A DNA stretch of 64,000 nucleotides, from assembly GCA_021513715.1 (NCBI GenBank), contig CP084167.1:800001-864000 (forward strand), in the 5' to 3' direction. Both the position numbers and the translations under genes were made by a program. Below, in pieces: positions 13,009 to 14,012 of the stretch. Each line of letters opens with the position of its first letter. The stretch's first letter is position 1. Below the pieces are notes generated by a model. That model made no database searches, was not told where the DNA came from, and saw only the letters and a program-made list of their open reading frames with translations. This DNA is from Candidatus Heimdallarchaeum endolithica. GTDB lineage: Archaea; Asgardarchaeota; Heimdallarchaeia; Heimdallarchaeales; Heimdallarchaeaceae.

Positions 13009-14012
13009 AAGCATGTCCAAAAATTAATTTTTATTAATGTGGGGGTTTATGTCGGAAGTATGAATTTCTTTCAGATCATAGACCCCCACAAAGCAAGAGA
13101 ATTCATAATCATTAATGAACCTTTCCTTAAGAAACTGGTGAAAGAGGAACCGAGAGAAAGCAAGAGAGGGAGAAAGAGAATAGCAGAAAGATGGGTGATA
13201 CTGGCTTTAGCAATCATTGCTAGAATAGAAGGGATAGCTTGGAGGAAGTTAGAGGAAAAGTTGTCTTTATGCGATTTTTTGATAGAAGAGGGGTGGATGA
13301 AGAAGATTCCTTCTAAATCTACTTTTCATGCAGTGTGGAGAGCGACAGAAAGTAAAATCTTAGAGCAGTGGATAATAGATTTAGGTAGGGAAATAGTGAG
13401 GAAAAAAGGCTTGAAAGCTATGGCAGTGGATAGTTCAGGGTTTAAAATCCGTCAAGCTTCTGTTTGGCGTTTTCTCAAATGGTCAAGAGGGACACTAAAG
13501 AAAACCTCTAAACTTTTCTGGAAGATACACCTTATAGTTGGTTTACCCTCTCGAGCTATAGTCTCTCTCGCTCATTCTGCTAGTAACACTCACGATAGTA
13601 AAGTCTTCGGTTTACTCTGGCAGAAACTTCCTTCTGCACTCTTGAGACCTTTCTTGCGATTTTATGGAGACTGTGCCTACTGGACAGAAAATATCGTTGG
13701 ACTTCTTAGCCAACATTCCTTTTTTCCTGTTATTCCCCCAAAAAGTAATGCTCGTTATCCCTCTCCTCCTCCCCTCGGACCAATAGTTCAAGCTCATCGT
13801 CTCTACCCTGGTCTGTATCGTCGTAATCATCATCCCGAGTATCGTAGTAGTATTGAACACGTCTTTGGTCTCCTTAAACTCTCTCTTCCCCCAATCCTTG
13901 ATCGTTTACCCTCCACCATCCTCTCTACCTTGTACAGTTCTCTTCTCTGTTACAACTACCTTTTACTCCTTCGGACCGTTTAGTAGGTGAAAAAGAATTT
14001 TTGGACATGCTT
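13009..14012 (+). mobile_element. Insertion sequence, DDE type (IS5/IS4-like), 1004 bp
   Basis: Perfect 17-bp TIRs AAGCATGTCCAAAAATT (13009-13025, 13996-14012); TATATT direct repeat at 13003-13008 and 14013-14018; composition differs from flanks. Confidence 0.93.
13060..13983 (+). CDS. DDE transposase (DDE_Tnp_1-like)
   Basis: AVDSSG, KIHL, HDS, GDCAY, YRSSIEHVFGLLK; start ATG 13060 lies inside the TIR boundary, ORF-track start 12895 lies outside. Confidence 0.9.
   Translation: MNFFQIIDPHKAREFIIINEPFLKKLVKEEPRESKRGRKRIAERWVILALAIIARIEGIAWRKLEEKLSLCDFLIEEGWMKKIPSKSTFHAVWRATESKILEQWIIDLGREIVRKKGLKAMAVDSSGFKIRQASVWRFLKWSRGTLKKTSKLFWKIHLIVGLPSRAIVSLAHSASNTHDSKVFGLLWQKLPSALLRPFLRFYGDCAYWTENIVGLLSQHSFFPVIPPKSNARYPSPPPLGPIVQAHRLYPGLYRRNHHPEYRSSIEHVFGLLKLSLPPILDRLPSTILSTLYSSLLCYNYLLLLRTV

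Follow-up and report, generated by a model that had tools for sequence, protein, structure and literature searches.

The genome of Candidatus Heimdallarchaeum endolithica contains an insertion sequence (IS) whose transposase gene is purine-rich in its first half and pyrimidine-rich in its second, with the change falling in the middle of the element; the locus thus raises the question of what could produce such a mirror composition within 1 kb. The element lies in the window, that is, the whole 64,000-nucleotide stretch of DNA analyzed in this work (contig CP084167.1, positions 800,001 to 864,000 of the forward strand); the host genome is a single 3,326,783-bp contig with 31% GC and is congeneric with Ca. 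Heimdallarchaeum aukensis. The first-pass annotation of the window had described the flip and offered two explanations: either a long rod formed by the RNA or single-stranded DNA, with the terminal inverted repeats closing it, or strand-specific mutation that proceeds inward from both ends.

An IS5-like element with a composition step at its midpoint

The element at 13009–14012 (1004 bp; Table 1) is an active IS5-like insertion sequence of an ordinary kind. The genome holds 33 full copies with 89–100% identity, in both orientations, and the reading frame is intact in 22 of these. The transposase matches PF01609 (DDE_Tnp_1 type; 44 bits, cut-off 23), its residues D124, D204, and E266 are invariant across 26 homologues, and its structure model (pLDDT 84) has DDE transposases and integrases as the top structural matches; no relative was found by sequence among solved structures. 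IS4/IS5-type transposases share a Y(2)R(3)E(6)K signature; the corresponding motif here is R262-x3-E266-x6-K273, with P259 in the position of the Y. The best NCBIfam model, NF033579 (IS5), scores 71 bits, under its cut-off of 140 (the homologues score 62–88 bits), so we describe the element as IS5-like and not as a member of IS5. It resembles that family in its length of ∼1 kb, single ORF, PF01609 DDE domain, short inverted repeats, and target duplication, and its 17-bp repeats and 1004-bp length fall within the IS5 definition (inverted repeats, about 0.8–1.3 kb). In addition to the lower score, it may differ in its target duplications, which are variable (5–9 bp, mode 6); a fixed, subgroup-specific length is expected in the IS5 family, whose subgroups include IS903 and ISH1. 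Among 32 full-ended copies the duplications are 6 bp (n = 14), 8 bp (n = 5), 5 bp (n = 3), 7 bp (n = 2), 9 bp (n = 1), and ≤2 bp (n = 7).

Table 1. Coordinates in the window of the element's features.
Feature	Position	Strand	Basis
Left target-site duplication, TATATT	13003..13008	.	second instance at 14013-14018
Left terminal inverted repeat, 17 bp	13009..13025	+	start of all full copies
Purine-/G-rich left half, top strand, purine 0.61	13009..13500	+	base counts, fitted step
14-bp hairpin around start codon	13038..13090	+	arms 13038-13051, 13077-13090
Transposase gene, 307 aa, DDE	13060..13983	+	ATG 13060; PF01609; invariant columns
Pyrimidine-/C-rich right half, top strand, purine 0.37	13501..14012	+	purine-rich 5' half of bottom strand
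Midpoint site, duplicated in tandem (4-5 bp) in defective copies but not in this one	13507..13512	+	
Right terminal inverted repeat	13996..14012	-	pairs with 17-bp left repeat
Right target-site duplication, TATATT	14013..14018	.	matches left duplication

The ends of homologues with 40–70% identity resemble the left terminal inverted repeat. The GGGG/CCCC core of the hairpin is conserved across homologues with 63–98% identity, without clear covariation among them; the hairpin may conceal the start codon in read-through RNA. A promoter and terminator scan of the element gave results at the level of chance. The close relatives of the transposase with a known host are from Heimdallarchaeia; relatives were not found in viral contigs, and one distant homologue had no relatives in plasmids. 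By inspection, the element is located between a PAS-type gene and an RNase III-like gene, and the neighbors at 9106–11446 and 14060–14824 resemble feoB/feoA iron uptake genes and RNase III.

The flip from purine to pyrimidine is real and extreme, it reaches fourfold degenerate sites, and it alters the protein. Along the element the purine content drops from 61% to 37%, stepwise, at 0.49 of its length. The counts in the first-pass annotation are exact (52 purines of 60 at 13141–13200; 46 and 45 pyrimidines of 60 at 13861–13920 and 13921–13980), and the switch that it placed near 13440–13560 agrees with the maxima of the cumulative purine excess (13504) and the cumulative G−C (13491), the midpoint being 13510. 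Its codon shifts are also present: arginine is encoded on the left by AGA (9), AGG (3), and CGT (2) and on the right by CGN (9) and AGA (1); leucine is encoded on the left by TTR (8) and CTN (5) and on the right by CTN (22) and TTR (7). The check that it named, composition at fourfold sites, gives T17 G14 A10 C3 on the left and T47 C27 A10 G2 on the right (p = 2e-6 for purine/pyrimidine, p = 3e-7 for G/C, and p = 0.06 for A/T). Measured against 1409 host ORFs of similar length, none of which matches the purine difference of the element, the half-to-half difference has z = 6.2 (z = 6.4 at third positions).

The protein shifts as had been described, with K/E/R/G making up 0.35 of the left half and 0.17 of the right while the DDE residues are kept; because the halves of homologues from two other host families are equal (0.25 and 0.26), the protein shift follows the DNA. 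The element had also been called mirror-symmetric: this is correct for the step near the midpoint but inexact in amount, since, relative to unflipped homologues (purine ∼0.54 in either half), the left half is raised by ∼0.09 and the right half is lowered by ∼0.19. The flanks of the element are flat, that is, the skew ends at the termini, and the neighboring genes are in mixed orientations.

The synonymous composition is fitted better by a step than by a linear slope; the step falls at 0.49 of the length for the 1004-bp clade and at 0.47–0.52 for a 1090-bp clade. When the element is fitted on its own, the step is preferred by 2.5–6.4 lnL with one extra parameter, and its 2-lnL range is ∼0.42–0.55 of the length; within the IS5-like family alone, the element midpoint and codon 147 are indistinguishable as the switch point.

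The skew in other elements and other hosts

Several unrelated multicopy elements in the same genome have the same polarity, with third-position z values of 3.0–5.2: an IS481 element (above cut-off), an IS6-like element, an ISH3-like element, and an element that carries only TnpB. The polarity is independent of the orientation of the element in the host genome, and the skew reaches noncoding DNA (the leader of the TnpB element has 101 purines in 124 positions, the tail 87 in 219). The switch is located at 0.44–0.53 in three of four measures for IS481 and at 0.53–0.63 for the IS6-like element; for the ISH3-like and TnpB elements it is gradual or off-center. One MITE family flips (F5; p = 1e-3); a second (F2, 16 copies) and a single-copy TnpB are flat.

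Several details of these elements were recorded in passing. The TnpB element (L066, G000:C1:2705809-2707657, and its relatives) is a 1.85-kb multicopy element that encodes only a TnpB/Cas12f-like protein, with CATG at either end and imperfect inverted ends. MITE F2 (383 bp) has CATG ends similar to those of this element, and MITE F5 (364 bp, 6 copies) resembles it at one end. Positions 51640–51742 of the window have a short 73% match to its purine-rich leader that may be low-complexity similarity only. The host IS481 has 25 copies, with target duplications of ∼15 bp.

Among relatives of the IS5-like transposase, three separate branches are flipped (its own clade, a clade with 46–49% identity, and, weakly, one element with 35% identity), and the host, where known, is always a member of Heimdallarchaeaceae (family f1; the other host families are designated f2, f3, f10, f13, f16, f21, and f23). 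Sister branches in f2 and f3 are flat; the pooled mirror G/C skew is +0.69 and +0.50 in the flipped clades and −0.05 in the f2/f3 homologues. In other f1 genomes, IS481 elements near that of this genome and one multicopy TnpB clade have the same polarity, some weakly; one IS481 clade, from an f1 host, is flat. PF01609 elements from f10, f21, and f23 and one IS481 are reversed, that is, their 5' halves are pyrimidine-rich (L263-L286, L179, L259). Their purine differences lie between −0.09 and −0.18, compared with a host spread of 0.03; the reversed f10 family switches at 0.45–0.47. Of eight bacterial IS481 controls, two lean reverse, five are flat, and one is forward (L252, ISRm20 from Sinorhizobium; purine 0.60 vs 0.31 at fourfold sites, p = 4e-5). 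The skew therefore tracks the host lineage and not the element family, and its sign flips in other Asgard families; with so few lineages and clades, related to one another, the p-values overstate their independence.

Mirror skew in an IS appears to be new, as no description was found for any IS in the literature (with incomplete coverage of subscription papers). The report of Ca. Heimdallarchaeum described a 3.32-Mb circular genome with 11 transposase/integrase repeat families of up to 27 copies (Wu et al., 2022; PMC8813620); for these families it gives copy numbers only, and the terms ‘skew’ and ‘inverted repeat’ are absent from its main text.

Origin of the skew

A process that is common to elements of different chemistry, anchored at both ends, and meets in the middle of the element points to DNA synthesis with priming at both flanks. 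We therefore favor, with modest confidence, the explanation that strand-biased DNA synthesis by the host, primed from both flanks and meeting mid-element, made the skew; the mirror composition would then be a mutational scar left by the host and not a function of the element. Models of replicative transposition and of donor-site repair have each strand made first, or exposed, in its 5' half. A successful IS lineage would be repeatedly resynthesized from host 3' ends at both flanks, either when two forks enter an intermediate of replicative transposition or when the empty donor site is repaired by homologous recombination; by either route the 5' half of each strand would be laid down first or exposed, and the two reactions would meet near the middle. 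A host-specific bias in error or damage would produce G-/A-rich 5' halves in Heimdallarchaeaceae and C-/T-rich 5' halves in some other Asgard families, and would be strong enough to alter the protein. The ingredients have precedents: IS6 forms cointegrates and IS903 (IS5 family) can take alternative pathways (PMC7986276), TnpB cuts empty donor sites and thereby retains the element (10.1101/2023.03.14.532601), and repair synthesis in yeast is ∼1000-fold more mutagenic, two-step, and poorly mismatch-corrected, and switches templates (PMC12891019). The second first-pass explanation, strand-specific change copied inward, thus survives the two tests that had been named for it (the skew persists at fourfold sites, and the halves are not a chimera) and fits both the midpoint step and the sharing by unrelated elements, although the support for the copying route, from the midpoint step and the mosaic copies, is indirect.

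Substitution patterns are consistent with strand asymmetry: a strand-symmetric model is rejected at fourfold sites (2ΔlnL = 58.7, 6 df), and in a reversible fit most classes favor purines, chiefly G, on the strand of the 5' half, with C>T approximately equal to G>A; this rate matrix is fitted to mosaic sequences and largely restates the composition. Cytosine deamination alone predicts 5' halves that are T-rich, not A-rich, and C>T changes have no CpG or deaminase-type sequence context. The variants among resident copies are those of ordinary decay toward A/T; on the strand of the 5' half only G>A exceeds C>T (0.136 vs 0.098, p = 0.01), and this erodes G. The skew was thus not made during residence, and the failure of recent variants to build it counts against host synthesis.

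The copies recombine. By the four-gamete test, 43% of site pairs are incompatible in H. aukensis and about 60% in the present genome; linkage falls off as distance grows, and of the 169 H. aukensis polymorphisms 118 are common to both genomes. Mosaic copies in both genomes, which were assembled independently and by different methods, imply that the copies exchange sequence. No midpoint recombination hotspot was seen, which also counts against host synthesis. A duplication at the midpoint (position 499 of 1004; 13507–13512) is present in 9 of 33 copies here and 5 of 9 in H. aukensis. At position 499, intact copies have either of two alleles, and several duplicated copies have both in tandem, as if two halves had been joined with a 5-bp overlap; the duplication may be a single old event. 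Defective IS5-like, IS481, IS6-like, and ISH3-like copies contain recurrent 4–8 bp tandem duplications; by eye, those with a 5-bp unit and a central mismatch are a minority.

Other observations also weigh against host synthesis: the off-center or gradual switches of the ISH3-like and TnpB elements; the flat MITE F2, single-copy TnpB, and IS481 clade in an f1 host; and the A/T sign of the element, which is opposite to that of the host leading strand. In this host G exceeds C on the leading strand, and the 5' halves of the element agree with it in G/C but not in A/T. The usual leading strand is G-rich. Two f10 hosts have a chromosomal skew that reverses close to cdc6 genes; C and T prevail on their leading strand, as they do in the 5' halves of the reversed elements. 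At fourfold sites on the two contigs (G107:C2 and G154:C2; L287-L319) the inferred leading strand is pyrimidine-rich, with T>A ∼0.2 and C>G ∼0.05. In one f3 genome (G030), however, the IS is flat despite a reverse chromosomal G/C skew, and a further genome (G077) is unclear or opposite; the link between IS skew and host leading-strand skew is therefore mixed. In the present genome GC skew reaches its minimum near 2.2 Mb, with cdc6 genes close by at 2.15 and 2.28 Mb and another at 1.20 Mb; the replichores are unequal, and the CpG observed/expected ratio is 0.49.

NucS/EndoMS was considered as the host factor. Its occurrence in the searched Asgard genomes is patchy: it is present in 18 of 21 to 21 of 24 genomes in f1, 18 of 19 in f16, and 6 of 7 in f23, and is rare or not found in f3 (0 of 7 to 1 of 12), f13 (0 of 40), and f10 (2 of 43). 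The families with reverse skew include both one that has NucS (f23) and one that mostly lacks it (f10), and this candidate was rejected.

The main rival to host synthesis, which we consider unlikely, is selection on transcription of both strands, in which a purine-rich entry and a U/C-rich far half would favor termination within the element or R-loop formation at each end; host genes would thereby be insulated or the transposase limited. Such selection would be symmetric and would affect all ISs of a host, and the erosion of the skew by recent variation means that some restoring force is needed. Archaeal termination by aCPSF1/FttA reads U-rich RNA (PMC13675443), and pyrimidine runs of at least 8 are mostly in the 3' halves (sense, 8 vs 3; antisense, 11 vs 0); however, T runs of at least 4 barely differ between the halves (3 vs 4; 2 vs 5). 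Selection does not predict a sharp midpoint step, the mixed orientation of the flanking genes does not favor it, and it has difficulty with the reversed lineages, since the polarity in f10, f21, and f23 would require selection in the opposite direction.

We regard as improbable the first-pass proposal that the RNA or single-stranded DNA forms a long rod that is closed off by the inverted repeats, or that the halves pair loosely by composition alone. The apex of such a fold would coincide with the midpoint step, generic pairing is expected between a G/A-rich and a C/U-rich half, and 167 of the 320 predicted pairs cross the midpoint; however, neither cross-half pairs (z = +0.33) nor pairs in the register of a rod (z = −0.68) exceed those in half-wise synonymous shuffles, the minimum free energy is ordinary for dinucleotide shuffles (z = −0.21), and the left half is similar to the reverse complement of the right only at the level of chance. 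Rfam gives nothing above threshold, and the skew is absent from close relatives in other hosts. The total folding energy is slightly better than that of half-wise synonymous shuffles (z about −1.8), a difference that local hairpins might account for.

Mutation from convergent transcription that starts at the two ends is more doubtful still: host coding strands have C>G of ∼0.1 at fourfold sites in all hosts examined, with the sign of the reversed elements, but this mechanism predicts pyrimidine-rich 5' halves, opposite to those in this genome, and the effect in host genes is several-fold below that in the IS. Finally, we give almost no credence to a chimeric origin from two parents, to an antisense gene that overlaps the transposase gene, or to constraint on the protein: there is an 82-aa antisense ORF at 13612–13860, and N-terminal DNA-binding regions are often K/R-rich, but the skew is strong at fourfold sites, the two halves are equally related to all 11 tested homologues, antisense open stretches are not longer than in unflipped homologues, and the K/E/R/G contents of the f2/f3 halves are equal.

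Known strand asymmetries and what the skew would mean

Strand asymmetries are familiar from chromosomes, in which GC skew switches at the origin and terminus, and from mitochondrial DNA and linear viruses that are copied from both ends. The skew described here is similar in that a strand bias reverses where converging syntheses would meet; it differs in occurring within a 1-kb element that has no origin, in having a sign that varies with the host lineage, in being a purine/pyrimidine and not a keto/amino bias, and in size, being ∼10 times larger than the chromosomal skew (mirror GC 0.5–0.7 vs 0.075). A second likeness is to gap repair by synthesis-dependent strand annealing in yeast (PMC12891019), which shares template switching between related copies, short duplications, escape from mismatch repair, and a two-step course; however, that process is known from yeast and not from Asgard archaea, and the papers we found attribute no long-term mirror composition to it.

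We raise only tentatively the broader idea that mirror skew, with its sign and size set by the repair or replication machinery of the host, is general in ISs, and that Heimdallarchaeaceae, a lineage near the eukaryotes, copy all of their transposons by strongly biased two-ended synthesis; if this is true, the skew could be a sequence-only read-out of the route of transposition and of the residence time of an element in its host. The growth in copy number of archaeal ISs, by cut-and-paste with donor repair or by replicative transposition, is hard to study, especially in the barely culturable Asgard archaea. A midpoint step that follows the host and reverses its sign would make the transposition route testable from sequence alone, and would expose a lineage-specific bias of repair synthesis. 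It would carry a warning, in that compositional drift in half of a protein can distort transposase trees; it could also date the host switches of elements, with flat elements being those that arrived recently.
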